Source of the DNA: an uncultured Ignavibacteriaceae bacterium
GTDB taxonomy: Bacteria; Bacteroidota; Ignavibacteria; Ignavibacteriales; Ignavibacteriaceae
Assembly (NCBI GenBank): GCA_964556005.1
Contig: CAZKUR010000014.1
Location: forward strand, 444-64,443
Length of the DNA stretch: 64,000 nt
Direction: 5' to 3'
Shown here: in pieces, positions 11,098-42,629 of the stretch
How the letters are laid out: each line of letters opens with the position of its first letter
Numbering within the stretch: position 1 is the first letter of the stretch
Notes under the pieces: model-generated
Seen by the model: only the letters and a program-made list of their open reading frames with translations
Databases searched by the model: none
What the model was told of the DNA's origin: nothing
Position numbers and translations under genes: made by a program

Positions 11098-11688
11098 ATG
11101 AATTCAATATTTTTCAAAAACCAGAATGATCTTCGAAAGTGGTTTATGAAAAATCATAAAACACAAAATGAATTGTTGGTTGGATATTATAAGAAAAGTA
11201 CCGGGAAGCCAAGTGTAACATGGCCGGAATCTGTAGATGAGGCATTATGCTTTGGTTGGATTGACGGAATTCGTAAATCGTTAGATGATATTTCTTATAC
11301 AATTCGTTTTACACCAAGAAATCCTAAAAGTACCTGGAGTGCAAAAAACATAAAAAGAATAAACGAACTTATAAAGCTTGGATTGGTGCAGCCTGCCGGG
11401 TTGGCAGCATTCAAAAAACTCGATGAAAAAAATTCAAAAATTTATTCATATGAACAAAATATAAATGAGCTTAGTAATGATTTTAAAAAATTATTTAAAA
11501 GAAATAATAAAGCCTGGAATTATTTTCAAAAATTAATCCCTTCACTTCGCAATCCTTCTATCCGCTGGGTAATGAGTGCAAAGAAAGAAGAAACACGTTT
11601 AAGCAGATTAAACAGGTTAATTCAAAATTGTGAAAACGAAGAATTGATCCCGGAATTACGATGGGGAAGAAATAATACAAGTGATTAA
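11098..11688 (+). CDS. YdeI/OmpD-associated family protein
   Basis: 196-aa ORF with the pattern F.....LRKWF..NH....EL.VGYYKK.....SVTW.ESVDEALCFGWIDG typical of the YdeI (DUF1801-related) family. Confidence 0.65.
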   Translation: MNSIFFKNQNDLRKWFMKNHKTQNELLVGYYKKSTGKPSVTWPESVDEALCFGWIDGIRKSLDDISYTIRFTPRNPKSTWSAKNIKRINELIKLGLVQPAGLAAFKKLDEKNSKIYSYEQNINELSNDFKKLFKRNNKAWNYFQKLIPSLRNPSIRWVMSAKKEETRLSRLNRLIQNCENEELIPELRWGRNNTSD

Positions 11689-11769
11689 AGGAGAGAAATT
11701 TTGAATTTTCGAATTGACTGTTTGATTTTCATTAAGCGGATAAATAATCAATAAATATTTAAAAAATTT

Positions 11770-11791
11770 GAAAATGTAAATTTACATTTTC
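11770..11791. promoter_or_regulatory. Perfect 22-bp palindrome, candidate distal operator (O-distal) of the LacI-family regulator
   Basis: GAAAATGTAAATTTACATTTTC equals its own reverse complement. It shares the half-site ATGTAAA with the palindrome at 12033 but lacks the central CG. Confidence 0.45.
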
Positions 11792-12032
11792 TTTAACTTT
11801 ATAAATAATTTGATATAATTGAAAGATTTATTCAATTGCATTGTTGTTTGCGAATAGTTAATAATTAAAATTATTTACAATCGCTTTACAATTATTAAAA
11901 ACTCTATAACATATTTATATAATTGAGGTTAGAGATTTTTTTTAATTTAGTAAAGAAATTTTCGTAAAAAATAATCTGATATTTTATCAATATCTCTTGA
12001 TTATTACAATTCGATTACTTAGCTTTAAAAGC

Positions 12033-12052
12033 AAATGTAAACGTTTACATTT
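12033..12052. promoter_or_regulatory. Perfect 20-bp palindrome, candidate LacI-family operator immediately upstream of the regulator gene
   Basis: AAATGTAAACGTTTACATTT equals its own reverse complement. The TGTAAACGTTTACA core with a central CG is the classical LacI/GalR-family operator architecture. It ends 10 nt before the ATG at 12063. Confidence 0.6.
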
Positions 12053-12062
12053 ATTTATTAAA

Positions 12063-13073
12063 ATGCCAATAACAATAAAAGAAATAGCCTACAAGGCAAA
12101 TGTATCAATTGCAACCGTATCCCGTGCTTTAAATGATAACGATAAAGTACGTCCTTCCACAAAAGAATCAATAAGAAAAATAGCAGAAAGATTAAACTAT
12201 AAACCTAATATAGTTGCTCGAAACCTTGTTAAGAGAAGTACAGGAATTATCGGTTTAGTGTTGCCTGAAATTCAAGGTGATTTTTATACCGATATAATTA
12301 AAGGCGTCGATAAAGCAGCTTCTTCATATAAGTATCATATAATTGTTGCAGGTTCTCATAGTGAAAGATCTGTTGTCGAATCGCTGATTAATTTTATGGG
12401 AAAGAGTATGGTGGACGGTGTTATAATCCTGTCTCCACTGATAAACGATCGCATCAAAGAAATAATTAAAAAAAGCGATACACCATTATTGATTATAGAT
12501 TGTGCTTTCCCTATTGATAATGTCGATACAGTTAATATTGATAATTTTCAGGGGGCATATGCTATTACGGAATACTTGATTAAATCCTTAGGATATACGA
12601 GAATTGCTCATATTGAAGGGCCTGCAAATAATAACGATGCTATTCAAAGAAAAAATGGTTATATTGAAGCATTAAAGAATAATAATCTTCCTTTACGGCA
12701 AGAATGGATTGTTCCCGGTGATTTTACATCGGAAGGAGGAAGGTTAGCCTGCACAAGACTTTTGAGCTTAATGGAAAAACCGGAAGTTATTTTTGCAGGT
12801 AATGATATGATGGCTGCCGGGTGCTATAAAGCCATAAAATCTTTTGGACTTAAAATACCCGGCGACATTGGAGTTGCCGGTTTCGATGATATTCTATTAT
12901 CTAATTTTCTTACTCCACGACTTACTACTGTTCACATTCCAATTACTGAAATAGGTAAATCAGCCGCCAATTTATTGATCGATAAGATTAAAAATGGAGT
13001 CGATCATAAGCCCAGGCATTTGAAAGTGTCTACAGGCATTATAGTTGGCGAATCCTGCAGATTGCTGAAATAA
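12063..13073 (+). CDS. LacI family transcriptional regulator
   Basis: The ORF track gives 11997..13073 (TTG). The ATG at 12063 gives the canonical N-terminus MPITIKEIAYKANVSIATVSRALN (HTH), followed by a periplasmic-binding-protein-like sugar-binding core. Confidence 0.9.
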   Translation: MPITIKEIAYKANVSIATVSRALNDNDKVRPSTKESIRKIAERLNYKPNIVARNLVKRSTGIIGLVLPEIQGDFYTDIIKGVDKAASSYKYHIIVAGSHSERSVVESLINFMGKSMVDGVIILSPLINDRIKEIIKKSDTPLLIIDCAFPIDNVDTVNIDNFQGAYAITEYLIKSLGYTRIAHIEGPANNNDAIQRKNGYIEALKNNNLPLRQEWIVPGDFTSEGGRLACTRLLSLMEKPEVIFAGNDMMAAGCYKAIKSFGLKIPGDIGVAGFDDILLSNFLTPRLTTVHIPITEIGKSAANLLIDKIKNGVDHKPRHLKVSTGIIVGESCRLLK

Positions 13074-13138
13074 TTTTTCCTTAAAACTGACGGTTCATAC
13101 AGTTAATTATTTATTAAACCTTATTAAAAGGAGGAAAT

Positions 13139-14893
13139 ATGAAACGATTGTTATTTACCGTCTCCAGCCTTCTGTTTCTATTCATGTTTGTTTTCGTAAC
13201 AAAAGTTACCGCGCAAAACCATGTGGATCCGCCGTACATTCAAGTAGTTTCGACAGCCGAACCGATGATTGTAGACGGGATTTTAGACGAAACCGATTGG
13301 TTAAAACGCTACGACTACCTGGTATTTAAAGCCGGCGCTTTACCAGGTGATGTAATCTATACGGTTACCGATACTATAACCGTCGTGGGTCCTTATACCG
13401 ATACAACTACAACTTTTGTTAAATTTTTGCATAACGGACTTGATCTTTATATCTCACTTCAATCCGATGATCAATCTGTTGGCAAATTTGGAACAAGCTG
13501 GGAAGGTGACGGACTGTTTATGAAGATTAAGGATGCTTCCGGCATTCCTGTTGAATACAAATTGTATTTTAATGTGGGGGGAACTGACCCGGATATTCAC
13601 TATGAAGAACCTGCAAACTATCCGAATTCCGGTGAGGGAGCTGCCTGGAAACACCCGGGTACTATAGTTAATGATACTACACAAATCGATTCAGGATATA
13701 CTGCTGAGATGGTAATTCATCTTGATCAGCTTGGCTATACCGATTCGTATGCGGATGTTGAAGTTTCAATCAATATATTCGATCCGGATGGATATATTGA
13801 TGATATGGATCCTTACGGCGGTATCGGTTCTTACTGGAAGAGCTGGTGGGGAAGCGAATGGGGAACAGATTTTAGGATTTTAAGATTGGCAGATCCTCAA
13901 TTAATAAATGCAAATAAAACCACCGACAATATTACCTTAGACGGTAAACTCGATGAAACATTCTGGAGCGGTGCCGAACAAGTAGTAATCGGTGTTGGTT
14001 CCAATTTAAGTACCGGCGGATATTATATGCAATGGAATAATCCGCTGAATTCATATACGGATCAAAGCATGGCTACCGTTAAGTTTATACATAATGGAAC
14101 GGATCTTTATATAGGTGTAACTTCAGACGACAAATCGGTTTGTCAGTGGGCGCCCGGATGGGAGGCAGATGGTTTATTCCTCTGGATGACAAACAAGGGT
14201 GAATACCTTCCGGATCCGTCCCAAAGAATGGAAATAAAGAATATGTACTTTGGAGATTCGGTAGGCGGTCCTACCCAATTTCAGTTAAGCGCTACGGTAC
14301 CAACCGGAGGTGCGGAAGGAGCATCATTTGAACCTGCCGGCACGGTAACACATACCGAAGTTGGCGGAGAAGATGCAGGCTACTCTTTAGAAATTGTCGT
14401 TCATACCGATTTGTTCGGTTATTCGGATGGGGATACTGTTCGTGTAAGTGCAGTTATCTGGGATTTGGATTATTCATCTGCCGATGCATATAATGAAGAT
14501 ACATCGGATTATGCTCCTCATTGGTGGGGAAGTCAGTGGGTAGATATCACTTTCGAGAAATATAATCTTTTCAGAATGGTTTATCTATCAAATCTGAGCG
14601 ATGTAAAAGATGTGATTCCAAATGGTCCTTTAACTTTCCAATTATTACAAAATTATCCCAATCCTTTTAATCCGGCTACCACTATTCGTTACACAATTCC
14701 GGAAGGTTCCAAAGTAATACTTAAAGTATATGATATTCTCGGGAAAGAAGTAGCTACCTTAGTAAATGAATATAAGAATGCAGGAAGTTATTTTACTTAC
14801 TGGTCTCCATCTAATCTTGCCAGTGGAATTTATTTCTACCGGCTTCAAGCTGCAGGTATAGTAAAAACAAATAAAATGATGCTTTTGAAATAA
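13139..14893 (+). CDS. Secreted protein with two CBM9-like (carbohydrate-binding family 9-like) modules and T9SS CTD
   Basis: 584-aa ORF behind a strong AAGGAGG SD, with a signal peptide. It contains two internally duplicated modules that start VDGILDETDW and LDGKLDETFW (the IDGxLDExxW motif is typical of CBM9-like domains); each module also contains VKF(L/I)HNG.DLYI. The C-terminus is LLQNYPNPFNPATTIRYTIP...GIYFYRLQAAGIVKTNKMMLLK. Confidence 0.65.
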   Translation: MKRLLFTVSSLLFLFMFVFVTKVTAQNHVDPPYIQVVSTAEPMIVDGILDETDWLKRYDYLVFKAGALPGDVIYTVTDTITVVGPYTDTTTTFVKFLHNGLDLYISLQSDDQSVGKFGTSWEGDGLFMKIKDASGIPVEYKLYFNVGGTDPDIHYEEPANYPNSGEGAAWKHPGTIVNDTTQIDSGYTAEMVIHLDQLGYTDSYADVEVSINIFDPDGYIDDMDPYGGIGSYWKSWWGSEWGTDFRILRLADPQLINANKTTDNITLDGKLDETFWSGAEQVVIGVGSNLSTGGYYMQWNNPLNSYTDQSMATVKFIHNGTDLYIGVTSDDKSVCQWAPGWEADGLFLWMTNKGEYLPDPSQRMEIKNMYFGDSVGGPTQFQLSATVPTGGAEGASFEPAGTVTHTEVGGEDAGYSLEIVVHTDLFGYSDGDTVRVSAVIWDLDYSSADAYNEDTSDYAPHWWGSQWVDITFEKYNLFRMVYLSNLSDVKDVIPNGPLTFQLLQNYPNPFNPATTIRYTIPEGSKVILKVYDILGKEVATLVNEYKNAGSYFTYWSPSNLASGIYFYRLQAAGIVKTNKMMLLK

Positions 14894-14903
14894 ACTTATT
14901 TCA

Positions 14904-14938
14904 GGGAGTAAGCTTCTGAAAGCTTGCTCCCTTTCTCT
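14904..14938 (+). terminator. Rho-independent terminator-like hairpin
   Basis: GGGAGTAAGCTT-CTGA-AAGCTTGCTCCC (12-bp stem with one G-T pair) followed by TTTCTCTT. It starts 10 nt after the stop at 14893. Confidence 0.55.
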
Positions 14939-14998: not shown

Positions 14999-17644
14999 AT
15001 GAAAAAATTTTACCAACTGACATTTTATATATTCTTATCCCTTATCCTAAATCAGGCTGCAATTTATTCTGGCCAGACAGGAAAAATTGCCGGAACAATA
15101 AAGGATAAGAATACCGGTGAGCTTCTAATAGGAGCCAATATAATTATCGAAAACTCCACAATGGGTGCAGCCGCCGATATTAACGGTGAGTATTTCATTC
15201 TTAATGTCCCTCCCGGTCAATATAATTTGATTGCTTCTATGATGGGGTATCAAAGCATGAAAGTAACCGGGGTTGTAGTGGAGGCAGATAAAACCACGCG
15301 TATAAATTTTGAATTGGAAGCAAAGACTCTTCAGCTTAGTAAAGAAATCGTTGTAACCGCACAAAAAATTATTATAAGAACAGATTTAACCTCAAGCGAA
15401 CTCTCTGTTTCGTCAAATGAAATTAAAAGCCTTCCGTTAGAGAATTTAAGTGATATACTCCAACTAAAAGCAGGAGTTGTAAAAGATGCTAACGGAGGGA
15501 TTCATATTAGGGGAGGCAGAACTTCCGAAGTAACTTATCTCGTTGATGGAATTCCTGTAAATGATTTTTATACCGGGGCGAGTGGAGCAAACATCGATGT
15601 ACAGTTCATGGAGGAAGTAAAAGTGATCAGCGGTGTATTCAATGCTGAATATGGTCAGGCATTATCTGGTGTGGTCGATGTTATAACTAAGCAGACATCC
15701 AAAAATTTCGAAGGCAGTGTTTCGTTCTCGTCAGGAGATTATTTAAGCAACCATAGTAAAATTTTTTATAACATAAATAATATTAATCCAACGAGTGTAA
15801 ATGAAACAAAAATTAATCTCAGCGGACCTGTTGGATTTTTAGGACACAATTTTAGTTATAACGTAGCTTTAAGAAGATATTCGAGTGACGGCTGGATATA
15901 CGGACAAAGGCGTTTCAATCCGAAAGACAGTTCTTACCAGGAAGGAGATCTCTTTCACATCGTATCAACAGGAGATAATAAAGCTGTTCCGATGAATTCT
16001 TATTTAAACTACAGCTTTCAAGGAAAAATTAGTTTTGATTTATTTCCTGAATTAAAGTTTTCAAATCTGTTTTTATGGGATAAATCCGACAGTACGAATT
16101 ACAATCATATATATAAGCTTAACCCTGAGGGATTACCTAAAAATTACAGCAGCGCATTCAACAATATATTTTCATTAACATATGTTTTCTCGCCGAGTAC
16201 CTTTCTTCAATTAAAATATTCTTACAGCCGCAATGATTGGAAATCATACGTTTATGAAAATATGAATGACCCGCGGTATGCAAACCCTCAATTGTTGTTT
16301 CAATTAACCAACTATGCTTTTCTTACCGGCGGAACAGATATGCATTACAATACGCGCACTACACAAACTAATATAGTTAAAGTAGATTTACTCAGCCAGG
16401 TTGATCACTATAATGAGGTTAAAGGAGGTATTGAATTTAACTTATCTCAAATTCAACCCGATAATCAAATTGTCAAATACCAGGATACAGTTAAAATTTT
16501 TGATTATAACTTTTATTTGAATCAAGGCAAATTTTATTTTAATCCGCTTTCCTTTGCTGCCTATTTGCAGGATAAGATTGAATATAAAAGCGTGATTATA
16601 AATGCCGGTGTACGTTATGATTATTTTAATTCAAGAGGAGTAGTTCCTAGCGATTTTAGTGATCCACATAATTCTCCAAAAGTTAAAGCAAAACCGCAAT
16701 ATCAAATCAGTCCTCGTCTCGGTATTGCATTCCCAATATCAGCTGACGGTACAATCCATTTCAGCTATGGACATTTTTTCCAGCTCCCTCCTTATAATTA
16801 TTTATTTACAAATCCGAATTTCAGAGTAGGTCCGGGCGGTTTGTATACTCTAATGGGAAATGCAGATTTAAAAGCTCAATCAACCGTAGCGTATGAAGTT
16901 GGACTTCATTACAAATTTTTGGATATGATTGGATTGGAAGTAATTGGCTTCTATAAAGATATTACAAATTTATTGGGAACTGAAATTCATGATACTTATA
17001 TAAGAAGTGATCGCTACGCACTTTATGTGAACCGCGATTACGGAAAAGCCAGGGGATTTTCAATTTCTTTAACTAAGCAACCGGTTAATGATAATGTTTC
17101 GGTGAGTCTAGATTATACTTTGCAGATAGCCGAAGGTAATGCATCTGATCCGAATGATTCTTATAATAAAGCACAGGGAACTCCGCCTAAAAAACCCAAT
17201 ATCCAGATTGTTCCATTGAATTGGGATCAAAGGCATACAATCAATGTTTCACTGTTTTACATAATTCCAAATAATTATAACATAGGCTTAATCGCTAAAT
17301 ATGAAAGTGGTTTTCCGTATACTCCCGAACTGCAGTCTATTCAAACAAGTTTTGAAAATAGTGCGAGGATGCCCTCCAAGATAAATGTAGATCTTCAATT
17401 CAATAAAGATTTTGTACTCTGGAATTCTACAATATCTTTATATGCGAAAGTCTTTAATTTGTTCGATACAAAAAATGAAAAAGATGTTTATCGTGATACG
17501 GGACGTGCGGGCTATTCGCTCGTTAATCAATATACACCTCAATACCAGGGGCCGAATACTCTTGATGAATATTTAATCAGGCCCGACTTTTATTCCGAAC
17601 CTCGAAGAATCGTACTTGGAATTTCCTATAATTTAAATCTGTAA
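14999..17644 (+). CDS. TonB-dependent transporter with N-terminal carboxypeptidase-regulatory-like domain (SusC-like architecture, but shorter)
   Basis: 881-aa ORF with a signal peptide. It has a CarboxypepD_reg-like segment (GKIAGTIKDKNTGELLIGANIIIENSTMGAAADINGEYFILNVPPGQYNLIASMMGYQ), a plug (IHIRGGRTSEVTYLVDGIPVND) and a long beta-barrel with aromatic-rich alternating strands. Confidence 0.85.
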   Translation: MKKFYQLTFYIFLSLILNQAAIYSGQTGKIAGTIKDKNTGELLIGANIIIENSTMGAAADINGEYFILNVPPGQYNLIASMMGYQSMKVTGVVVEADKTTRINFELEAKTLQLSKEIVVTAQKIIIRTDLTSSELSVSSNEIKSLPLENLSDILQLKAGVVKDANGGIHIRGGRTSEVTYLVDGIPVNDFYTGASGANIDVQFMEEVKVISGVFNAEYGQALSGVVDVITKQTSKNFEGSVSFSSGDYLSNHSKIFYNINNINPTSVNETKINLSGPVGFLGHNFSYNVALRRYSSDGWIYGQRRFNPKDSSYQEGDLFHIVSTGDNKAVPMNSYLNYSFQGKISFDLFPELKFSNLFLWDKSDSTNYNHIYKLNPEGLPKNYSSAFNNIFSLTYVFSPSTFLQLKYSYSRNDWKSYVYENMNDPRYANPQLLFQLTNYAFLTGGTDMHYNTRTTQTNIVKVDLLSQVDHYNEVKGGIEFNLSQIQPDNQIVKYQDTVKIFDYNFYLNQGKFYFNPLSFAAYLQDKIEYKSVIINAGVRYDYFNSRGVVPSDFSDPHNSPKVKAKPQYQISPRLGIAFPISADGTIHFSYGHFFQLPPYNYLFTNPNFRVGPGGLYTLMGNADLKAQSTVAYEVGLHYKFLDMIGLEVIGFYKDITNLLGTEIHDTYIRSDRYALYVNRDYGKARGFSISLTKQPVNDNVSVSLDYTLQIAEGNASDPNDSYNKAQGTPPKKPNIQIVPLNWDQRHTINVSLFYIIPNNYNIGLIAKYESGFPYTPELQSIQTSFENSARMPSKINVDLQFNKDFVLWNSTISLYAKVFNLFDTKNEKDVYRDTGRAGYSLVNQYTPQYQGPNTLDEYLIRPDFYSEPRRIVLGISYNLNL

Positions 17645-17655
17645 TAGGTTTTGTC

Positions 17656-20600
17656 ATGGATAAAAGTAAATCATTTTTTATTACTGTTTTTTTAGTTGCG
17701 TTTTTATCAACAGAAATTCTTTCCCAAATCCAAGTGCCGCTGAATATGCGGGGCGATCGAAAGTATCGAAAAGAGGGAATTCACAACGGCAATTTAGTTG
17801 AAACACTTTTTTATAATTTCGGAGAAGTTGCCTGGTGGGGAAGAGAACCCTCAGGCGTTTGGCCAAAAGGATCGGGGCATTCTTACATGGACGGCATAAC
17901 TCCTATCGTAGCTGCAGAAGTTGAAGATGAAACCGGACAAACTATTCATATAGTCGAAGCAGGGTACAGAGAGAATATGGATATTTCTCCGACAGGTGTG
18001 GAACGCGGCTGGCAGCCGAGGCCCGGATATGTTAATCCTAACCAGGATAATATTGCAATGAGTGATAATCCGATCACCTGGCCGGAAAGCTGGCCCGATA
18101 AAAATGCGTCATGGAACGGCTTTTGGAACGGTTATTTCGGAAAAAGAACTAATGCCGATCAAGAAAGTTTTTTTGTGGTGGATGACAACAGCGATGACGG
18201 GCCTAACTTTTTCCCGGATTCAAAGGATCATACAAGAAGAGGTCTCGGATTAAGTGTCGGTGTAAGAGGGTTTCAATGGTCCAACATTCTTTCAGAAGAT
18301 ATTATTTTCTGGCATTATGAAATTACTAATGAGAGTACTCAAGATTATACAAAGATTATTTTCGGAATGTATGTCGATTGCGGTGTCGGCGGGCAGTATG
18401 ATTCTAACGATGATTATGCTTCATTTGATATAAATAACGATATAACTTATAGCTGGGATCATGACGGAATAGGCCAGGGCGGATGGCATCCTACAGGGTT
18501 TGCCGGTTATGCATTTCTTGAGAGCCCGGGAAACGGTTATAACAAAATTGACGATGACAATGACGGTGAATTTGGAAGTCCTACCATTACTGCCCAGATG
18601 CTTATAGGTGAAATTAAAGGCAACGGGATTGATGATAATAGTAACGGTCTTGTAGATGAAGATTCGATAAATATCGGCATGAAGTACGCTGACGGTATAG
18701 ATAATAACGGCGACGGAAAAATCGATGAGATGATTGATGAAACAAGGGATGACGGAATTGATAACGATGGAAACTGGAATTCCAATACAGATGATGTCGG
18801 ATTGGATGGACTGGCAGGTACAGGTGATTTTGGAGAGGGAGACGGCAAACCTACATCAGGGTGGCAGCCGCCTGGTGTTGTTCCAGGTGCTCCCACTTCG
18901 CCTGTAAATAAATTCGGGTTGGTTGATACTAAACAACCTGGAGAACCGCATATTGATAAAACTGATAAAAATGAATCCGATCAAATTGGGTTAACTGCAT
19001 TCGATGTTTTTTATATCGGTTCGGGAGTTGTCTTCAGGGATGATGATAAGATTTGGGATAGAATTTCCTACAGTCATTTCGATACAAGGCTGCAAAATGG
19101 AAATATAGCTTTTCTTTTCGGTTCCGGTCCATTTATACTTCCCGCCGGAACTACCGAAAGATTTTCGCTTGCATTAGTATTCGGAAATGACCTGGATGAT
19201 ATTAAAAGAAATAAACAGGTCGTACAGGATATTTATAACAATAATTATAATTTTGCCCGTCCGCCTGATAAACCGAATTTAACTGCAGTACCCGGAGATG
19301 GAAGAGTTACCTTGTATTGGGATAATTCGGCAGAAAATTCATACGATGATTTTCTAAAGGAGTATGATTTTGAAGGTTATAAAATTTATCGAGCTACAGA
19401 TCCTGGTTTTCTAGACTCATATACTATTACAAGCGGCTACGGAGAAAATAGTCTTTTTAAACCTTCCGCTCAGTTTGATATAGTGGATGATATAAAAGGA
19501 TTTTTCCCTCTTGATTACCAGGGAGTAAAAGTTTATATGGGAGATAACAAGGGATTAAAACATTCATGGGTTGATACGAATGTTGTTAACGGGCAAACCT
19601 ATTATTATGCATTGGTTTCTTACGATAAAGGAAACTCTGCAATAGGATTATATCCGTCCGAATGCGCGAAAGTTATAGTTCGCGATCTGGCAGGAAATGT
19701 CACGGTCGATAAAAATACGGCTTATGTTACTCCGGGAACAAGAGTAGCAGGTTATGTTCAACCAGGTTTGGAAAGCGGGATTGTACATAGCAGCGGCTTT
19801 GCAACCGGCAGCGTCAGCGTAGATATTTTGGACGCTAATAAAATTTCGGATGGAAATTATACGGTTCTCTTTAACGATACAACCCATCCGGATACAATCT
19901 TATATTCTTTATATAAAATAAATGGAAACGATTCTTCACAGATTTTTGTCGACTCAAAATATATTAATGCTGAAGATTACAATCCCTTGTTCAACGGAAT
20001 GAGAGTTCTTGTTGCAAATGATACTATTGCTTTTGATCCTGATAACTCCGGCTGGAAAAACGGAACATCGAATCTTCTTATTCAAGGTCAATTGTTATAT
20101 TCATTTCCATCAAGAGTACATGGATTTCCATCCAGTTACGAAATCCGTGTTGGACAGCCGGATTCATCCTGGCGGTTCGGTTATAGATCGGCTACGAATT
20201 TTCAAGTCTGGGATATATATGAAAATGAAAAAATGAGATATTATTTATGGGAACCGGATACTCTTATCGATGGAAAAATTTCTGCCGGGGATTACATTAC
20301 TATCTGGATGCAGGTCAATTCTGTTTGGAAAGAAATATGGAAGTTTACATTTATCGCTCCGCCGAATCAAAGATTGTATCTTCCTTCCGAAGGCGAAGTG
20401 GGACAAATTGTAATCAGAACGCCTTTCCGTACCGGTGATACATATACATTTCTAACCAACGGTGCAAAAGTTAATTCGGTACAAGCAGCAAAGGATCTCA
20501 GTAAAATAGCCGTAGTTCCAAATCCCTATGTTGGTTCCGCAAAATGGGAACCGCAGAGATTAACAACTACCGGTAGAGGAGAAAGAAGAATTTATTTTAT

Positions 20601-20811
20601 TCATCTTCCGAAACAGGCAACTATTCGTATTTACACAATCAGCGGCGACCTTGTAAAAACACTCTACCACAACGCAGTAAATTTTGACGGCCAGGAATCC
20701 TGGGATCTAACAAATCAAAATGGTCTGGACATAGCGCCCGGTATTTATATCTACCATGTCGAGTCTCCCGGGCTGCCAAGTAAAATTGACAAATTCGCTG
20801 TAATTAAATAA
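17656..20811 (+). CDS. Large secreted protein of unknown function: Asp-rich Ca-binding-like cluster, FN3-like module, divergent T9SS-CTD-like tail
   Basis: 1051-aa ORF starting 11 nt after the transporter gene, with signal peptide MDKSKSFFITVFLVAFLSTEILSQ. A DxDxDG-type cluster lies at nt 18550-18852. An FN3-like segment reads PPDKPNLTAVPGDGRVTLYWDN...FEGYKIYRA. The C-terminal 102 aa (nt 20503-20808) resemble a T9SS CTD. No catalytic motif was recognised. Confidence 0.75.
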   Translation: MDKSKSFFITVFLVAFLSTEILSQIQVPLNMRGDRKYRKEGIHNGNLVETLFYNFGEVAWWGREPSGVWPKGSGHSYMDGITPIVAAEVEDETGQTIHIVEAGYRENMDISPTGVERGWQPRPGYVNPNQDNIAMSDNPITWPESWPDKNASWNGFWNGYFGKRTNADQESFFVVDDNSDDGPNFFPDSKDHTRRGLGLSVGVRGFQWSNILSEDIIFWHYEITNESTQDYTKIIFGMYVDCGVGGQYDSNDDYASFDINNDITYSWDHDGIGQGGWHPTGFAGYAFLESPGNGYNKIDDDNDGEFGSPTITAQMLIGEIKGNGIDDNSNGLVDEDSINIGMKYADGIDNNGDGKIDEMIDETRDDGIDNDGNWNSNTDDVGLDGLAGTGDFGEGDGKPTSGWQPPGVVPGAPTSPVNKFGLVDTKQPGEPHIDKTDKNESDQIGLTAFDVFYIGSGVVFRDDDKIWDRISYSHFDTRLQNGNIAFLFGSGPFILPAGTTERFSLALVFGNDLDDIKRNKQVVQDIYNNNYNFARPPDKPNLTAVPGDGRVTLYWDNSAENSYDDFLKEYDFEGYKIYRATDPGFLDSYTITSGYGENSLFKPSAQFDIVDDIKGFFPLDYQGVKVYMGDNKGLKHSWVDTNVVNGQTYYYALVSYDKGNSAIGLYPSECAKVIVRDLAGNVTVDKNTAYVTPGTRVAGYVQPGLESGIVHSSGFATGSVSVDILDANKISDGNYTVLFNDTTHPDTILYSLYKINGNDSSQIFVDSKYINAEDYNPLFNGMRVLVANDTIAFDPDNSGWKNGTSNLLIQGQLLYSFPSRVHGFPSSYEIRVGQPDSSWRFGYRSATNFQVWDIYENEKMRYYLWEPDTLIDGKISAGDYITIWMQVNSVWKEIWKFTFIAPPNQRLYLPSEGEVGQIVIRTPFRTGDTYTFLTNGAKVNSVQAAKDLSKIAVVPNPYVGSAKWEPQRLTTTGRGERRIYFIHLPKQATIRIYTISGDLVKTLYHNAVNFDGQESWDLTNQNGLDIAPGIYIYHVESPGLPSKIDKFAVIK

Positions 20812-20824
20812 ACAGGTTTATATC

Positions 20825-21835
20825 ATGTATAAAAAGATATTTACCATTCTAATAATATTATTTATAAGCGGAAAAACATCATCGCAGGTTTTTTCCGGAA
20901 CAACTGCCGGACAGTTTTTAAAAATTGAAGTCGGAGCAAAGGCAATAGCGATGGGAGGCGCATTTGTTTCGCAGTCGAATGATGTTTCTGCATTATACTG
21001 GAATCCGGGCAGCATTGCCAAGCTGCAGAATAGCGCTGCAATGTTTACGCATACATATTGGATTGCCGATATAAACCATGATTTTGCAGGAGTTGTTCTT
21101 AAAATCGGCGAACAAAATGCAATTGGTTTAAGCTATACCACATTAGGAATGGCTGATATGAAAGTTCGTACGGAAATTTATCCTGAAGGAACAGGTGAAT
21201 ATTTTTCTGCTAATGATTATGCAATTGGCATAAGCTACGGATTAAATCTTACTGAAGATTTCAGTATCGGAATTACCGGCAAATATGTCGGCGAAAGAAT
21301 CTGGCATATGTCTGCTTCTACAATAGCATTTGATCTCGGTATTCTTTATAACACTCCCATAAAAAATTTAAATCTCGGGATGAGTGTTTCAAATATCGGC
21401 GGCAAAATAAAATATTCGGGAGAGGATAATTTTATTTATTACAGCTACAATCAGGATGAGCATGGAAACAGTCAAAACGTTTATGCTGAAATAAAAATGG
21501 ATGAATGGGATTTGCCGCTGGTTTATAGGGTCGGTCTTTCAATGAAAATTTTTGAAAGTGATATTCATTCAATTATTATTTCTGCCGATGCCCTTCATCC
21601 GAACGATTACAACGAATTTGTCAACGTAGGTTTTGAATACGGATTTATGGAAAGAGTGTTTTTACGGGCAGGGTATAAATCATTATTTAAACAGGATAGT
21701 GAAGAGGGTTTAACTGCCGGATTGGGATTATTATATTATCTCACGGATTATATGCCTGTCAAAGTGGATTATGCATACGCAGATTTCGGAAGACTCAATG
21801 CTGTTCATAGAATTTCTCTGGAAATCGGGTTTTAA
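20825..21835 (+). CDS. PorV/PorQ-family (UPF0164-like) outer-membrane beta-barrel protein
   Basis: 336-aa ORF with a signal peptide. The N-terminal signature GTTAGQFLKIEVGAKAIAMGGAFVSQSNDVSALYWNPGSIA matches my recollection of the PorV/PorQ family N-terminus. Alternating beta-strand patterns run to the C-terminal F (SLEIGF). Confidence 0.6.
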   Translation: MYKKIFTILIILFISGKTSSQVFSGTTAGQFLKIEVGAKAIAMGGAFVSQSNDVSALYWNPGSIAKLQNSAAMFTHTYWIADINHDFAGVVLKIGEQNAIGLSYTTLGMADMKVRTEIYPEGTGEYFSANDYAIGISYGLNLTEDFSIGITGKYVGERIWHMSASTIAFDLGILYNTPIKNLNLGMSVSNIGGKIKYSGEDNFIYYSYNQDEHGNSQNVYAEIKMDEWDLPLVYRVGLSMKIFESDIHSIIISADALHPNDYNEFVNVGFEYGFMERVFLRAGYKSLFKQDSEEGLTAGLGLLYYLTDYMPVKVDYAYADFGRLNAVHRISLEIGF

Positions 21836-21862: not shown

Positions 21863-24241
21863 ATGCCTCTTTTTCAAAATAAATACGGCTACTTCTCCGA
21901 TGATGGAAATGAATATATAATTACAACACCTCAGACTCCGAAGCCCTGGATAAATGTTATTTCAAACAGAGATTATGGATTAGTAATATCACAGGCAGGC
22001 GGCGGCTTTAGCTGGTTAACACATTCGGAATTTAACCGTTTAAATAGATGGCATCAGGATCTTGTGCAGGATAATTGGGGAAAATATATTTATATAAAAA
22101 ACAATACTACCGGTGAAATATGGAGCCCAACCTGGCAGCCTGTTAAAAAGGATCTTGATTCGTTTAAATGCAGGCATGGAATAGGATATACGATTTTTGA
22201 AAGTATTTATAAAAAAATTAAAATTGAATTATGCATCTTCGTTCCGTTCGAAGAAAGTATTGAAATATGGGATTTAAAAATTAATAATACAGGTGATCAA
22301 AATATCGATTTATCTGTCTTCACTTATTTTGAATGGTGTCTTGGTTCATCTTCGGATCATCACCGTGAGTTTCACCGTTGTTTTATCGATGTTAAATTTG
22401 ACAAAGAGTGCAACGGGCTGTTAGCTAATAAAAGAATTTGGGACATCCCCATCGGGGATAGAGGGCATTGGAACTACGAATATCCCTATACGGGATTCTT
22501 GTTGAGTAATAAAAATATTTCCGGCTACGATGGTGATAAGTACTCCTTCATAGGGCAATACGGATCTCTTCAAAATCCTTTCAGTTTGATGAATGGCAAA
22601 CTTTCAAATTCAATAGGTATGTGGGGAGATCCTATTGCCTGTTTAATGAATGATATAAAGATAAATAAAAAAAGTTCGGATAGAATAATTTTTACAGCCG
22701 GATTAAAAAAAAATAAAGATGAGATAATTTCATCTAAACAAAAATTTAATAATCCTGTTAATGTTGATAACGCTTTTTACGTTGTTAAAGCAAAATGGAA
22801 AGAACTGTTCAGTAATTTTGAAATTGACACTCCTGATAAAGCTATGAACATCCTTGTTAATAAATGGCTTCCATACCAGGCTATATCCGGAAGGTTATGG
22901 AGCAGGACTGCATATTATCAGCAAAGCGGTGCCTTCGGATTTAGAGATCAGCTGCAAGACAGCATGATATTCTTAACTACTAATCCGGAAGAAACTTCCA
23001 AGCAAATTCGGCTTCATGCAAGACATCAATTCGATGATGGTACTGTTCTGCATTGGTGGCATCCCATAACTGAGAAGGGAATGGCAGCAAAAATAAGCGA
23101 CAATTTATTATGGCTTCCTTTCCTTGTAATTGAGTATTTAAAGGAAACTGCTAATTATCAAATCCTTAGTGAATTAGAACCGTATTATGAAAGTGATAGT
23201 GAAAGCGGGACAATTTTCGAGCATTGTACTAAAGCAATTGATATGGTACTGTCAAGAATGAGTCAAAGAGGCTTGCCGCTTATTGGAGCAGGAGATTGGA
23301 ATGACGGAATAAATGCTGCCGGACTTGAAATGAAAGGTGAATCCATATGGTTGGCTGAATTTCTGTATTTAATATTGATGAATTTTTCCAAAATAGCAGA
23401 AAGAACTAACCAAAACAGCTATTCCGAAAAATGTAAAGTTGAAGGAAATAAACTCCAAACAGCATTTAATAAAATTGCCTGGGATGGAGAGTGGTTTTTC
23501 CGCGGTACTAAGGATTGCGGAGAAAAATTTGGGAGCAGTGAAAATTCCGAAGGACGAATTTTTTTAAATCCGCAGGTTTGGTCTGTAATTAGTGATATTG
23601 CTTCGAAAGAAAAGCAAGTTGCCGCTATGTATTCTGTTGAAAAAATTCTTTTTAAGAAAAACGGTTGTTTATTATTGTACCCTGCTTATTATAATTCCGA
23701 TAAAAATATAGGTTACCTTACACGATATGCACCTGGGAGAAGAGAAAACGGTGGTGTATATACTCATGCATCAATATGGTCTATAATTGCCTTCTGTAAA
23801 ATTTATAAAAACGATATCGCTTATGAAATCTTCAAAAGATTATGCCCTATATACAATTCCCAAGATCCTGATGTTTATCAAGTCGAACCGTATGTAACTC
23901 CTGGAAACATTGATGGACCAGATTCAAAATATTACGGCAGAGGAGGCTGGACCTGGTATACAGGCTCAGCTTCCTGGTTTCAAAAAGTTATTATCGAATG
24001 GATTCTCGGAATTAGAGCCAGTGAAGATGGACTGATAATCGATCCGCATATTCCGTTAAACTGGACGGAATATAAAGTAAAGAGAATGTTTAGAGGAACC
24101 TGCTTTACCATCCGGTTCAATATACCGGAAGATTCTAATGGAATAGTTGATTTAATAAAAGTTGATGGCGAAGAAATTCATGGAAATGTAATTTCTCCGT
24201 CCGGCAAAAAAACTTGTAATGTTGAGGTGATTTTTCGTTAG
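21863..24241 (+). CDS. GH94-type glycoside phosphorylase (cellobiose / beta-oligoglucan phosphorylase family), cytoplasmic
   Basis: 792-aa ORF with no signal peptide. The N-terminus YGYFSDDGNEYIITTPQTPKPWINVISN is typical of GH94. Other family blocks are YYQQSGAFGFRDQLQD and the catalytic-Asp block GAGDWNDG. Length matches cellobiose/chitobiose phosphorylase-type members. Confidence 0.8.
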   Translation: MPLFQNKYGYFSDDGNEYIITTPQTPKPWINVISNRDYGLVISQAGGGFSWLTHSEFNRLNRWHQDLVQDNWGKYIYIKNNTTGEIWSPTWQPVKKDLDSFKCRHGIGYTIFESIYKKIKIELCIFVPFEESIEIWDLKINNTGDQNIDLSVFTYFEWCLGSSSDHHREFHRCFIDVKFDKECNGLLANKRIWDIPIGDRGHWNYEYPYTGFLLSNKNISGYDGDKYSFIGQYGSLQNPFSLMNGKLSNSIGMWGDPIACLMNDIKINKKSSDRIIFTAGLKKNKDEIISSKQKFNNPVNVDNAFYVVKAKWKELFSNFEIDTPDKAMNILVNKWLPYQAISGRLWSRTAYYQQSGAFGFRDQLQDSMIFLTTNPEETSKQIRLHARHQFDDGTVLHWWHPITEKGMAAKISDNLLWLPFLVIEYLKETANYQILSELEPYYESDSESGTIFEHCTKAIDMVLSRMSQRGLPLIGAGDWNDGINAAGLEMKGESIWLAEFLYLILMNFSKIAERTNQNSYSEKCKVEGNKLQTAFNKIAWDGEWFFRGTKDCGEKFGSSENSEGRIFLNPQVWSVISDIASKEKQVAAMYSVEKILFKKNGCLLLYPAYYNSDKNIGYLTRYAPGRRENGGVYTHASIWSIIAFCKIYKNDIAYEIFKRLCPIYNSQDPDVYQVEPYVTPGNIDGPDSKYYGRGGWTWYTGSASWFQKVIIEWILGIRASEDGLIIDPHIPLNWTEYKVKRMFRGTCFTIRFNIPEDSNGIVDLIKVDGEEIHGNVISPSGKKTCNVEVIFR

Positions 24242-24268: not shown

Positions 24269-26689
24269 ATGAAAAAGATAATATTTTATATTTTGTTTAC
24301 TTTCCTTTTATATGTAAATGGAAATGCTCAAGGGCCTTACATCTTCTTCAGCGATAGTCCCGATAATACTTTTTACGACTGGAGCTGGGGCTATGTAAAT
24401 GACCCGAGCATATTGGAACGCGTGGGTGAAAAATTCCCGGTTGATACGGTTTATCATTATTCCGGTATAAATAGTTTAATACTTCACTGGACTTCAAATG
24501 CAACAGGTGATTGGGGAATCGCTTGTGCCGCGATTGGAACTCCATGGCCTACTTGGGATGTAACCGTTATGGATTCGGTACAGTTGTGGGTTTACACTGA
24601 ACAGCCCATCGATTCATTAAATTTACCGGTTATGTACCTCGAAGACAATAATAATCATAAATCGGTTCAAAGGAAAATTTCGGATTATTCTTCAGATATT
24701 CCGGCAGATAATTGGACTAAAATTTCTCTGCCAATCGATATTTTTATCAATGGTTCAACCGGAGTGGATTTTACAATTATTAAAACTATATTCTTCGGTC
24801 AGGATGAGGCTGATGGAGAAGAGCACAAGCTGTACCTTGATGAAATCAGGATGATTTCCAATGCGGCGGTAATCGATACAATTCCGCCTGCTCCGCCTGT
24901 TGGCTTATCTGCTGAAGGATTCGACAGGCATATTGATCTGAACTGGACATTAAACACAGAGGAGGACGTTGCAGGTTATAATGTGTATAGGCAGCAGGGG
25001 TCTAATTATGTTATTATTGGAGTAGCCTCAAAAGACGATAGATATTACACTGATTTCATCGGCCAGAGCGGAGCAAGCGGAGCTTATAAAATTACAGCAT
25101 TCGACAATAACCAGAACGAATCCGGTTTTTCAAGTATTGCAACTTCATCAACTCATTCCTTAAATGATGACGAGCTGCTCGATATGGTTGAAGAAGCAAC
25201 CTTTAGATATTTTTGGGATTATGCTCACCCATTTTCCGGATTGGCAAGGGAAAGAACCGGTTCGGGAAATACTGTTACAACAGGCGGATCAGGCTTTGGT
25301 ATAATGGCAATTCTTGTTGGAATCGAAAGAGGCTTCATAACACGTGAAGAAGGTGCACAAAGAATGCTTCAAATACTTAATTTCCTTTCCACCAAAGCCG
25401 ACAGGTTTCACGGTGCATTGCCGCATTGGCTTGATGGTGAAACCGGTGATGTAATTCCATTTGGCCAACACGATGACGGGGGAGACCTTGTAGAAACCGC
25501 TTTTATGATGCAGGGACTTCTTACAGCAAGACAATATTTTGATCAAAATAATACTACCGAAAATGTTATCAGAATCTATATTAAAAATTTATGGGAAGGC
25601 GTTGAATGGGATTGGTACAGGCAGGATCCGCCGACAAATTACCTTTACTGGCATTGGTCGCCTAACTTCGGATGGATTATGAATTTCCCTTTAATCGGAT
25701 GGAACGAAACCATGATTACATACCTATTGGCAATAGCATCGCCAACGCATAGTATCCCTGCCAATTTATACGCCGACGGATGGGCAAGTAGTTCGGGGTA
25801 TACAAACGGACAATCATTTTACGGCATTCCATTGGAAGTAGGATGGAACTACGGCGGTCCTTTATTCTTCGCTCATTATTCCTTTCTGGGATTTGATGCA
25901 AGAAATAAAAAAGACGGCTTTACAAATTACTTTATAAATAATTACCATCATACGAAAATTAACAGGGCATACTGTATAGATAATCCGCAAAGTTATGCAG
26001 GCTATTCAGATTCACTCTGGGGATTGACTTCTTCCGATGATCCTTTTGGGTATAATGCCCACTCTCCTTACAGCGGTGATAACGGAACAATAACACCAAC
26101 GGCGGCTCTTTCATCTATGCCTTACACGCCTGATGAATCTATGATGGTTTTAAAGAATCTTTATAGAAGTTACGGAAATCATATTTGGGGAATTTACGGA
26201 TTTAAAGATGCAATGAATTTGCAGCAAAATTGGTATGCCGCGAGTTATCTCGCTATAGATCAAGGACCTATTATTGTAATGATCGAAAATGCACGTACGC
26301 AATTATTATGGAATAAGTTTATGGCAAGCCCGGAAATTCAGCCTATGCTTGATGCAATAGGTTTTGTGTATGATCCTACCGGTGTAGCTGACAATCATAA
26401 TATTGAAAAAATAAATTTTGAACTGAAAGGAAACTTCCCGAATCCATTTAATCCTGCGACTACAATTTCATTTACGATCCCTGAGGCTCAGCATATTACA
26501 GTAGTTATTTACGATATTCTCGGAAGGAAAGTGAAAACGCTTTTCGACGGAATTATTAAGCAGGGAACAAAAAACCTGGTTTGGGATGGAAAGAACGATC
26601 ATAGTGCTTATGCAGGTTCCGGGATTTATTTATATACAATTAAAGGGAAAGATAAATTGCTTGCAGGTAAAATGGTTCTTCAAAAATAG
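24269..26689 (+). CDS. Secreted glucoamylase-like (PF10091-type, GH144-like; candidate endo-beta-1,2-glucanase) with N-terminal module, FN3-like domain and T9SS CTD
   Basis: 806-aa ORF with a signal peptide. It has an FN3-like segment (GFDRHIDLNWTLNTEEDVAGYNVYRQ) and an (alpha/alpha)6-like core. Core blocks are FRYFWDYAHP, GGSGFGIMAI, FHGALPHWLDGETG, GGDLVETAFMMQGLLTARQYF, WNETMITYLLAIASPTH, GGPLFFAHYSFLGFD and YGFKDAMN...DQGPIIVMIEN. The C-terminus is LKGNFPNPFNPATTISFTIP...GIYLYTIKGKDKLLAGKMVLQK. Confidence 0.65.
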   Translation: MKKIIFYILFTFLLYVNGNAQGPYIFFSDSPDNTFYDWSWGYVNDPSILERVGEKFPVDTVYHYSGINSLILHWTSNATGDWGIACAAIGTPWPTWDVTVMDSVQLWVYTEQPIDSLNLPVMYLEDNNNHKSVQRKISDYSSDIPADNWTKISLPIDIFINGSTGVDFTIIKTIFFGQDEADGEEHKLYLDEIRMISNAAVIDTIPPAPPVGLSAEGFDRHIDLNWTLNTEEDVAGYNVYRQQGSNYVIIGVASKDDRYYTDFIGQSGASGAYKITAFDNNQNESGFSSIATSSTHSLNDDELLDMVEEATFRYFWDYAHPFSGLARERTGSGNTVTTGGSGFGIMAILVGIERGFITREEGAQRMLQILNFLSTKADRFHGALPHWLDGETGDVIPFGQHDDGGDLVETAFMMQGLLTARQYFDQNNTTENVIRIYIKNLWEGVEWDWYRQDPPTNYLYWHWSPNFGWIMNFPLIGWNETMITYLLAIASPTHSIPANLYADGWASSSGYTNGQSFYGIPLEVGWNYGGPLFFAHYSFLGFDARNKKDGFTNYFINNYHHTKINRAYCIDNPQSYAGYSDSLWGLTSSDDPFGYNAHSPYSGDNGTITPTAALSSMPYTPDESMMVLKNLYRSYGNHIWGIYGFKDAMNLQQNWYAASYLAIDQGPIIVMIENARTQLLWNKFMASPEIQPMLDAIGFVYDPTGVADNHNIEKINFELKGNFPNPFNPATTISFTIPEAQHITVVIYDILGRKVKTLFDGIIKQGTKNLVWDGKNDHSAYAGSGIYLYTIKGKDKLLAGKMVLQK

Positions 26690-26699
26690 ATTAAGGCCG

Positions 26700-27974: not shown

Positions 27975-27989
27975 ATAAATGCTAAAATT

Positions 27990-38547: not shown

Positions 38548-38550
38548 ATC

Positions 38551-42628: not shown

Positions 42629-42629
42629 T

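Follow-up and report, generated by a model that had tools for sequence, protein, structure and literature searches.

The 64,000-nucleotide stretch of DNA analysed here (the window) comes from an uncultured Ignavibacteriaceae bacterium (GenBank assembly GCA_964556005.1, contig CAZKUR010000014.1) and carries, on the + strand, three adjacent genes encoding a TonB-dependent transporter (TBDT; 14999-17644, 881 aa), an all-β secreted protein of 1051 aa (17656-20811), named BIG in the following, and an outer-membrane β-barrel related to PorV and PorQ (20825-21835, 336 aa). The genes of TBDT, BIG, and PorV-like barrel are passed on together, each BIG gene having a barrel gene of its own, and the trio very probably makes up an outer-membrane unit whose parts work together in glycan uptake. 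The best reading of the data is that it represents the conserved outer-membrane chassis of glycan uptake resembling that of polysaccharide utilisation loci (PULs) in Ignavibacteria, Calditrichota, Marinimicrobia, Rhodothermales, and allied lineages of the Fibrobacterota–Chlorobiota–Bacteroidota (FCB) group. The open reading frames (ORFs) coincide exactly with those reported in an earlier interpretation of the DNA letters (the sequence-only reading), which had described three co-directional genes with spacers of 11 nt (TBDT/BIG) and 13 nt (BIG/barrel).

A profile of the BIG family, compared with 1.84 billion cluster representatives at 50% identity, matched at least 1640 of them with the limit set at E ≤1e-30, and 5115 when it was relaxed to E ≤1e-10. 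The homologues of BIG number in the thousands, all of them annotated as 'hypothetical' and none with Pfam domains. At least 592 loci were found in species-representative genomes, of which the best 80 were inspected, 76 of these having enough flanking sequence. A TBDT homologue is located directly upstream of the BIG homologue in 76/76 loci, and a PorV-like homologue directly downstream, again in 76/76. This sandwiched order is kept in orthologues (50-80% identity, found in loci of the β-1,2-glucan type) as well as in paralogues (36-42%, found in other contexts). The sequence-only reading had predicted such a conserved arrangement next to carbohydrate-active enzymes (CAZymes) and was to be abandoned in its absence; the synteny is complete on each side across several phyla, and varied CAZymes, together with sugar ABC importers, adjoin the loci.

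The genes of related loci are closely packed, with median intergenic gaps of 13 and 18 nt and with overlaps in 14/72 and 9/69 cases, respectively. The three proteins have diverged to nearly the same extent, their mean pairwise identities being 46%, 48%, and 47%, and their distance matrices correlate with r = 0.84-0.90. Tandem modules are present in three loci of the survey (L066, 1-11283; L079, 1-16829; L057, 3800-16967), arranged either as BIG-PorV followed by TBDT-BIG-PorV or as two TBDT-BIG units; the whole unit is duplicated in them, with one barrel per BIG. In L031 (7001-14628), which belongs to a metagenome-assembled genome (MAG) of WOR-3, about 3.3 kb of extra BIG-like coding sequence (10490-11416 and 11417-13270) precedes the PorV-like gene, corresponding either to a fused or duplicated C-terminal region or to an additional protein with a C-terminal domain (CTD) of the T9SS (type IX secretion system).

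According to their labels, the inspected loci include 19 from Ignavibacteria/Melioribacteraceae, nine each from Calditrichota and Marinimicrobia, and three each from Rhodothermales and WOR-3/Stahlbacteria, and many further ones belong to MAGs with generic Bacteroidota or FCB labels. Balneolaceae, Cyclonatronaceae, KSB1, Latescibacterota, and Fidelibacterota are among the BIG protein matches. The module is also found in the complete genome of a cultured organism, Roseithermus sacchariphilus RA, whereas for Melioribacter roseus and Caldithrix abyssi the module comes solely from MAGs that bear these species names. Four loci (L034, L041, L050, and L058) are located in MAGs labelled Alphaproteobacteria, Acidobacteriota, and Syntrophomonadaceae; since their sequences resemble those of the FCB group (37-39% identity to the BIG of the window, with the same synteny), mis-binning or mislabelling is the likelier explanation.

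The first protein of the trio consists of a signal peptide, a carboxypeptidase-regulatory-like N-terminal domain (CarbopepD_reg_2, 68 bits), a plug (PF07715, 49.6 bits, cutoff 23.9), and a 22-strand-type barrel (PF00593, 85.1 bits, cutoff 27), that is, of an N-terminal extension followed by plug and barrel. With the latter two above the Pfam gathering scores, it is a member of the TBDT superfamily. It had been described as SusC-like in the sequence-only reading, which is correct for the domain layout and not for family membership: the SusC/RagA model TIGR04056, which has a cutoff of 368 bits, scores 71.5 bits and covers only positions 2-217 of 981, placing the transporter outside the SusC family on account of both the low score and the restriction to the N-terminal part of the model. 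The TBDT of the Roseithermus module scores 79.8 bits with the same model. Neither the neighbouring genes nor any other scanned ORF of the 64-kb window (all ORFs ≥400 aa being covered) gave a match to a SusD-family Pfam domain, in agreement with the earlier remark that no SusD-like gene follows the TBDT or is apparent at 11.7-36 kb. BIG itself does not qualify as a member of the SusD/RagB family, having no SusD Pfam domain, an AlphaFold2 (AF2) model that is nearly all β rather than TPR-like, and no lipobox cysteine. The cluster includes enzymes of glycoside hydrolase (GH) families GH94 and GH3, as well as two with a PF10091 domain, and no susC/susD pair, so that it falls outside the strict definition of a PUL (PULDB: susC/susD tandem with CAZymes) and is PUL-like in function only.

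BIG matches no Pfam or NCBIfam family above cutoff; in particular, these collections give no catalytic domain, and the sequence-only reading had likewise noted no recognisable catalytic motif. Its AF2 model, calculated with a 127-sequence alignment and replacing an 18-sequence run that had yielded a predicted local distance difference test score (pLDDT) of 56 and an unreliable fold search, reached a pLDDT of 88.9 and a predicted template modelling score of 0.82, with a fold that is almost wholly β. The N-terminal domain (residues 25-535) was modelled mostly at pLDDT 85-95 and includes 115 columns conserved at ≥90% in the 127 sequences. It is interrupted by an Asp-rich segment with DxDxDG/EF-hand-like loops at residues ~295-400; this segment, as well as a following FN3-like module, had been picked out in the sequence-only reading, and the top Foldseek matches are indeed arrays of FN3 domains. 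The lipobox scan was negative, so that BIG does not count as a lipoprotein. The N-terminal domain, the FN3-like module, the linker, and the CTD are the best conserved parts (0.64-0.74), and the two sandwiches in the middle the least conserved (0.41-0.46); across paralogues, conservation is most uniform in the CTD and the linker. An orthologue-specific signature of conservation was sought in the variable domains and none that was clear emerged, the ratios being similar to those in other domains. A Foldseek search of the PDB with the whole model identified no global homologue and gave only local matches with template modelling (TM) scores ≤0.24, which included the FN3 arrays, PorZ (5m11, E 2.7e-7), PorU (6za2), and β domains of GH94 phosphorylases. 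The latter are weak matches of the N-terminal region to supersandwich domains, which are non-catalytic (TM about 0.2). The conserved parts of BIG are common to loci for different glycans, and this argues for a generic structural role rather than for SusD-like specificity.

Standard models recognise the tail of BIG poorly: TIGR04183 stays at 19.2 bits (cutoff 23) and FlgD_ig at 17.6 bits (cutoff 27), and no match to PF18962 was returned. Weak hidden Markov model matches to the C termini of PorZ (E 5.6e-5) and PorU were found, and the BIG-family profile compared with the PDB returned only the PorU CTD (E 0.25). Although TIGR04183 remains below its cutoff, the tail is collinear with five canonical CTDs encoded in the window, has the motifs of a type-A CTD (PNP, the L-β3-β4 glycine, SG[IV]YxY, and a terminal K-x-x-[LIV]-x-K), and is predicted to form a β-sandwich, which bears out the divergent T9SS-CTD-like tail proposed earlier. 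Residues P955/N956/P957, G997, G1029/Y1031, and K1051 are invariant or nearly so in 127 BIG homologues, and the strands of the AF2 model span residues 952-1049 (pLDDT ~88-95), with the C-terminal sandwich at 978-1049. BIG differs from the five other CTDs of the window by a 14-residue insertion, (W/F)EPxxxxxxGRGERR, that follows the PNPY strand. The segment carrying it (residues 959-974, nt ~20530-20577) has a conservation of 0.74 and yet a pLDDT <50, being the only such part of the model; conservation combined with disorder in the monomer is the pattern expected of a segment that becomes ordered on a partner. The CTD as a whole is conserved at 0.60 between paralogues and at 0.67 between orthologues. 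BIG was also considered as an orthologue of PorZ and rejected, with NF052228 giving 21.8 bits against a cutoff of 260 and matching the tail only.

The 336-aa barrel was likened to the PorV/PorQ family already in the sequence-only reading, and the match to NF033709 places it there (223.8 bits, cutoff 90; residues 26-336 aligned with all 326 positions of the model, 1-326). The Pfam PorV model gives 50.1 bits (cutoff 27), and the sole PDB sequence match is PorV of Flavobacterium johnsoniae (6h3i_F, E 5.6e-12). None of the equivalog models reaches its cutoff, neither PorV (NF033710, 87.1/250), nor PorQ (NF033711, 106.1/220), nor PorV2 (NF052325, 86.9/325). Six other module barrels follow the same pattern, with NF033709 matched and the PorV, PorQ, and PorV2 equivalogs not, and by these scores the module barrels make up a separate PorV/PorQ subfamily. 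A generic porin of the FadL/Toluene_X type was rejected, Toluene_X scoring 23 bits, below its cutoff, compared with 224 bits for PorV_fam. We propose that the barrel would serve as the cognate receptor or anchor of the BIG CTD.

A fourth member usually accompanies the trio. The gene just ahead of the TBDT gene encodes a protein with a T9SS CTD in 37 of 43 complete cases, with an N-terminal part that varies and that carries a carbohydrate-binding module (CBM) of type CBM_4_9 in eight of the 43 and CBM9_1 in two; L081 and L082 add two more CBM9_1 proteins in this position. In the window the slot is taken by a 584-aa protein without a PDB sequence match, orthologues of which (46-73% identity) fill the same slot in GH94-containing loci of the β-1,2-glucan type. 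Such a variable upstream CTD/CBM protein is a better candidate than BIG for the substrate-specific glycan binder.

Downstream of the barrel, the commonest products in paralogous loci (68 proteins scanned) are CUT1 sugar-binding proteins (22) and PpiC-type peptidyl-prolyl isomerases (PPIases; 15), and further CTD proteins and CAZyme or CBM domains are found beyond them. The PPIase, of about 500 aa (Rotamase_2, SurA/PpiD-like), is encoded between the PorV-like gene and the gene of the ABC solute-binding protein (SBP) in L026, L033, L035, L037, L038, L042-L044, and others. A PPIase also belongs to the SprA translocon complex of F. johnsoniae, and the one encoded here may be a dedicated periplasmic chaperone of the module. 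The locus of R. sacchariphilus RA is organised as LacI-[CBM4_9+CTD]-TBDT-BIG-PorV-SBP-permease-permease-x-GH130, and a 3.9-Mb genome has the same layout with two GH130 genes. A contig of marine Marinimicrobia reads LacI-GH5-[CTD protein]-TBDT-BIG-PorV-SBP-...-GH130-...-MalK, and two other loci read [CBM9+CTD]-TBDT-BIG-PorV-SSF-ROK-GH94. The flanks thus vary from locus to locus (GH94/GH144, GH130/GH5, or amylase/CBM20), usually with sugar ABC importers and LacI regulators. Brought together in these clusters are intracellular GH/GP enzymes, a CUT1 importer, and enzymes or CBM proteins secreted by the T9SS. Because the trio stays the same and the flanking genes differ, it can be described as a substrate-independent chassis in substrate-specific, LacI-type PUL-like clusters.

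The sequence-only reading had suggested that a PorV paralogue specific to the locus may hold the CTD-bearing protein at the TBDT, or deliver it there, in functional replacement of SusD, an idea that is plausible with the corrections given here. These observations can be combined into a mechanism. BIG would be exported through Sec and then by the T9SS, using its divergent type-A CTD. The CTD would be neither cleaved nor lipid-anchored; together with its insertion, it would be captured and kept by the PorQ-like barrel of the module, in the way PorZ is held by PorQ and PorU by PorV, thereby tethering the all-β ectodomain of ~100 kDa beside the TBDT. In this position, the invariant N-terminal, Ca-loop, and FN3 parts of BIG might attach to the transporter from outside the cell or cover its extracellular face, where BIG would help to capture oligosaccharides released by a CTD-anchored glucanase and hand them over to the TBDT, with substrate-specific binding provided by the variable upstream CTD/CBM protein. 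Passage across the outer membrane, powered by TonB, would be followed by uptake through the ABC importer and by breakdown by GH94 and GH3 enzymes. Confidence in the complete tethering mechanism, with T9SS-exported BIG held by its cognate barrel beside the TBDT, is evenly balanced; it is supported by the private barrel of each module, by the insertion-bearing CTD similar to those of PorZ and PorU, and by the invariant linkage to the TBDT. A SusD-like lid role for BIG would be a possible addition rather than a probable one.

Alternative explanations differ mainly in what the barrel does for BIG. The barrel could be only a transient shuttle of the PorV type that takes BIG from the SprA translocon, after which PorU would cut the CTD and BIG would be anchored to lipopolysaccharide or released; BIG and the TBDT may cooperate even then, although not through tethering by the barrel. 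PorV is known as a cargo shuttle (PMC10202324), the tail of BIG keeps all canonical type-A motifs, including the L-β3-β4 glycine and the terminal K-x-x-[LIV]-x-K, and the uniform conservation of the CTD across paralogues suggests shared machinery. A general PorV would, however, be sufficient for a transient role, yet each module, even in tandem, has its own barrel; moreover, the insertion is conserved in BIG and missing from the five other CTDs of the window, and the nearest CTDs are those of PorZ and PorU, which are not cleaved. Shuttling alone is thus considered unlikely. The similarity to PorZ and PorU, which are among the top Foldseek matches even though the similarity is local (TM about 0.1), could also mean that BIG and the barrel form a PorZ-PorQ-like platform instead of a lid, gathering the other CTD proteins of the locus, namely the upstream CBM/CTD protein and the glucanase with its CTD, by the TBDT into an assembly resembling a utilisome. 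Such an arrangement would agree with the CTD protein encoded ahead of the TBDT in 37/43 loci, with the additional CTD enzymes encoded downstream, and with the substrate independence of the conserved parts of BIG. What makes it improbable is that BIG has neither the β-propellers of PorZ nor a PorU-like peptidase and resembles these proteins clearly in the CTD only, that the upstream CTD gene is absent in 6/43 loci and in tandem modules, and that the canonical CTDs of the neighbouring proteins require no special machinery.

The N-terminal domain of BIG is rich in invariant Asp, Glu, and Trp residues, which, together with the putative Ca-binding loops and the weak Foldseek matches of this region to the supersandwich domains of GH94 phosphorylases and dextran dextrinase, might point to a surface enzyme, either of a new CAZyme family or a Ca-dependent lyase, that processes glycans before uptake and needs the barrel only for export or anchoring. 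The same N-terminal domain is nevertheless found in loci for β-1,2-glucan, mannan (GH130), and starch (CBM20), unlike what would be expected of a substrate-specific enzyme, and the similarity to GH94 enzymes, at TM ~0.2, concerns their non-catalytic β domains, with no catalytic Pfam or NCBIfam domain in BIG; an enzymatic role is therefore very unlikely. Finally, the idea that three outer-membrane genes merely share an operon is effectively excluded by the synteny survey, with its 76/76 conservation on each side across phyla and old paralogues, the 1:1 ratio of barrel to BIG, the gene overlaps, and the co-divergence of the products.

Returning to BIG tethered by its own barrel beside the TBDT, several points weigh against this reading or limit its reach. 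The contacts of BIG with the barrel and with the TBDT, retention of the CTD, and binding of glycans by BIG are all inferred from sequences and predicted structures, and the presence of a T9SS in the source organism is itself deduced from the six CTD proteins of the window. As an all-β protein of 1051 aa, BIG resembles no known TBDT lid, and its variable domains, lacking a clear signature of specificity, do not allow any substrate-binding site to be named. Correlated divergence is expected of any co-inherited operon genes, and the nearly equal conservation of the CTD between paralogues and orthologues would agree with recognition by a common T9SS machinery no less, and perhaps better, than with specificity for a private barrel. 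More distant members of the family, beyond the best 80 of at least 592 loci, could also break the synteny.

PULs based on SusCD are the paradigm of glycan foraging and are mostly confined to Bacteroidia. Similarly to SusC/SusD (and RagA/RagB), the module combines, in a regulated CAZyme cluster, a TBDT that has a carboxypeptidase-regulatory-like domain with the gene of a large surface partner, is accompanied by additional surface glycan-binding proteins or enzymes, and occurs as many paralogous loci for different glycans. It differs in that the partner is all-β, 1051 aa long, not a lipoprotein, and without SusD/TPR homology, that the TBDT fails the SusC model, that display relies on T9SS CTDs and not on lipoprotein export, and that a PorV/PorQ-like barrel is encoded by a third, obligatory gene. 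In addition, import and regulation involve a CUT1 ABC importer and LacI, whereas Sus relies on major facilitator superfamily transport and on hybrid two-component systems or extracytoplasmic-function sigma factors. The module might thus be regarded as a functional analogue of SusCD with its surface glycan-binding proteins, built from unrelated parts, with T9SS tethering in place of surface lipoproteins. SusCDE has been reported in M. roseus (PMC3534657), and a BIG module (L035) is present in a MAG with the label M. roseus. SusCD and the module therefore probably coexist in this organism, which means that the module does not serve merely as a replacement in settings that rule out SusD.

The closest precedents for the barrel come from the T9SS itself. 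PorV binds the CTDs of cargo at the translocon and acts as a cargo shuttle, whereas PorU and PorZ keep their CTDs, which anchor PorU to PorV and PorZ to PorQ; cognate PorV-like barrels (PorQ, PorP/SprF) have been proposed to shield specific CTDs from cleavage (PMC10202324, PMC11285876). As in the PorZ-PorQ and PorU-PorV pairs of Porphyromonas gingivalis, a type-A-like CTD, nearest to those of PorZ and PorU, is paired in the module with a barrel of PorQ-like size. BIG, in contrast, has no β-propeller or peptidase, and the pair of BIG and barrel is encoded in one operon with a TBDT, in several copies per genome, and in catabolic loci. CTD retention is known for the P. gingivalis proteins and, in the case of BIG, is suggested by the similarity of the CTD and by the private barrel gene. 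SprB-SprF of F. johnsoniae (PMC10202324) similarly pairs the gene of a T9SS cargo with a following gene of its own PorV-like barrel, but the CTD of BIG is type-A-like and not type B, its barrel has no PorP/SprF Pfam match, and the context is nutrient import and not gliding adhesins. Alternate lipoprotein lids have been described for non-SusC TBDTs, including BtuG, XusB, DUF4876, and others (Price et al. 2023 preprint, 10.1101/2023.03.17.533168). They share with BIG the conserved proximity of a non-SusD gene to the gene of a non-SusC TBDT and have been proposed to cap the transporter, yet they are much smaller lipoproteins, handle small substrates (cobamides, siderophores), and have no accompanying barrel, whereas BIG is a T9SS-type protein of ~1050 aa found in oligosaccharide loci.

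A probable orthologue of the window cluster is the β-1,2-glucan (SGL) cluster of Ignavibacterium album, IALB_1177-1187, which has been studied experimentally; it comprises one homologue of the GH94 enzyme SOGP and two of GH144, an ABC binding protein for sophoro-oligosaccharides, and a TBDT, by which the authors postulate oligosaccharide uptake (Kobayashi et al. 2022, PMC8861115). The main-text passages name 'a TonB-dependent transporter' and not the 1051-aa protein or the PorV-like barrel, and the window cluster differs by having a GH3 gene and no gene for the GH35 transferase studied there (PMC8861115). Literature searches, subscription-only literature being outside their reach, retrieved no published description of the module; neither Ignavibacteria, nor PorV, nor type IX secretion is mentioned in a review from 2026 on the glycoside transporters of bacteria.

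The features of the cluster and of the three proteins are collected in Table 1. The window has a G+C content of ~35%, and the nearest relatives of its proteins are found in Ignavibacteriaceae MAGs (81-89% identity). Contrary to the statement that the trio opens the cluster, the 584-aa CTD gene and the LacI gene precede it, and since both belong to the conserved unit in related loci, the trio is not strictly the opener. The glycan of the window cluster would be β-1,2-glucan, as suggested by its enzymes; the substrate of the GH94 phosphorylase is likewise taken from the GH144 context and from the I. album cluster (PMC8861115). The ORF called for the SBP shares its first 104 nt with the end of the GH144-like gene (26586-26689), and its true start is probably located further downstream, as the Pfam match begins only at residue ~78. 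A stretch of 570 nt between GH3 and the second GH144-like gene (31929-32499) contains no ORF ≥100 aa and may represent a second promoter or an internal boundary of the cluster.

Table 1. Annotated features of the catabolic cluster and of the TBDT, BIG, and barrel genes within the window.
Feature	Position	Strand	Basis
LacI-family regulator of the cluster	11997-13073	+	Pfam LacI and Peripla_BP_1/3; LacI homologues similarly placed in many related loci
584-aa secreted protein, canonical type-A T9SS CTD, unannotated N-terminal region	13139-14893	+	PF18962 38 bits, TIGR04183 40.4 bits
Hairpin, 13 bp, GC-containing, between 584-aa gene and TBDT gene	14903-14932	+	Sequence reading
TBDT, 881 aa	14999-17644	+	Pfam; TIGR04056 sub-cutoff
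BIG signal peptide, residues 1-24, without lipobox Cys	17656-17727	+	Translation, AF2 N-terminal helix, lipobox scan
BIG N-terminal β-rich domain, residues 25-535, conserved	17728-19260	+	AF2, conservation
BIG Asp-rich insert, residues 291-445, DxDxDG-type putative Ca2+-binding loops	18526-18990	+	Sequence
BIG FN3-like module, residues 536-695	19261-19740	+	Foldseek, conservation 0.67
BIG two variable β-sandwich domains, residues 696-950	19741-20505	+	AF2 pLDDT >90; conservation 0.41-0.46
BIG divergent type-A T9SS CTD, residues 951-1051	20506-20811	+	CTD alignment, weak HMM, PDB profile, Foldseek
PorV/PorQ-family outer-membrane β-barrel, 336 aa, one copy per module	20825-21835	+	NF033709
GH94 phosphorylase, probable 1,2-β-oligoglucan phosphorylase	21863-24241	+	PF17167 396 bits, PF06165 259 bits
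PF10091 (GH144-type endo-β-1,2-glucanase-like) enzyme, CBM30-like domain, canonical T9SS CTD	24269-26689	+	Domain scans
CUT1-type sugar ABC importer: SBP 26586-27974, permeases 27990-28880 and 28881-29690	26586-29690	+	
GH3 β-glucosidase	29715-31928	+	
Second PF10091/CBM30 enzyme, without CTD	32500-34662	+	
ROK-family kinase/regulator	34982-35947	+	

The hairpin, AGGGAGTAAGCTT-CTGA-AAGCTTGCTCCCT, appears perfect and is located 10 nt past the stop of the 584-aa gene and 67 nt ahead of the start of the TBDT gene. It resembles a terminator or attenuator, although only a weak T tract follows the stem, and might terminate transcription in part or stabilise the mRNA, so that the binder gene and the trio would be expressed at different levels. 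A scan for sigma-70 promoters was uninformative (85 matches compared with 74.5 expected), and Rfam gave no match in the window. Besides BIG, canonical type-A T9SS CTDs are found in five proteins, encoded at 5860-7797 (- strand), 7991-10804 (- strand), 13139-14893, 24269-26689, and 39385-41685, which comprise an esterase-domain, a BNR/sialidase-like, and a β-propeller-like protein, as well as the 584-aa protein and the glucanase. The presence of five further CTD proteins within 64 kb indicates that the organism relies heavily on T9SS surface display; six CTD proteins are thus encoded in all, with no T9SS core gene among the genes of the window. Past the catabolic cluster, regions 35986-45698 and 47695-55299 contain genes of envelope biogenesis and efflux (LptD_2-type, OstA/LptA-like, an outer-membrane efflux protein, an HlyD-type adaptor, and three MacB/FtsX-type permease genes), which appear unrelated to the trio.

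To our knowledge, next to nothing has been described of oligosaccharide uptake in the FCB phyla outside Bacteroidia, even though some abound in the dark ocean, in aquifers, in sediments, and in hot springs. PUL-like TonB-dependent glycan import is a process of a known kind; what appears to be new here is the accessory apparatus, consisting of BIG and the barrel. We can tentatively speculate that the module is a three-protein complex and an independently evolved parallel of SusCD, in which the TBDT is capped by a Ca-binding BIG of ~100 kDa, with its uncleaved CTD plugged into a private PorQ-like barrel, and that it is the predominant PUL type of these phyla (Ignavibacteria, Calditrichota, Marinimicrobia, Rhodothermia, WOR-3, and others), with PorV/PorQ barrels serving as permanent, non-secretory anchors. 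If true, this would be a new use of PorV/PorQ proteins outside secretion, as permanent membrane anchors for accessory proteins of a transporter, and it would join T9SS surface display and TonB-dependent import, which have so far been separate fields of study. The reading would also assign a function to the large BIG family, which has neither a Pfam nor an NCBIfam model and comprises at least 1640 clusters at 50% identity. Direct tests could make use of cultured carriers, namely R. sacchariphilus RA and, if its cluster carries the trio, I. album, the enzymes of which have already been characterised; M. roseus and C. abyssi are probable further ones. For non-Bacteroidia FCB phyla, the four-gene signature of CTD/CBM protein, TBDT, BIG, and PorV-like barrel would provide a practical marker of PUL-like loci.

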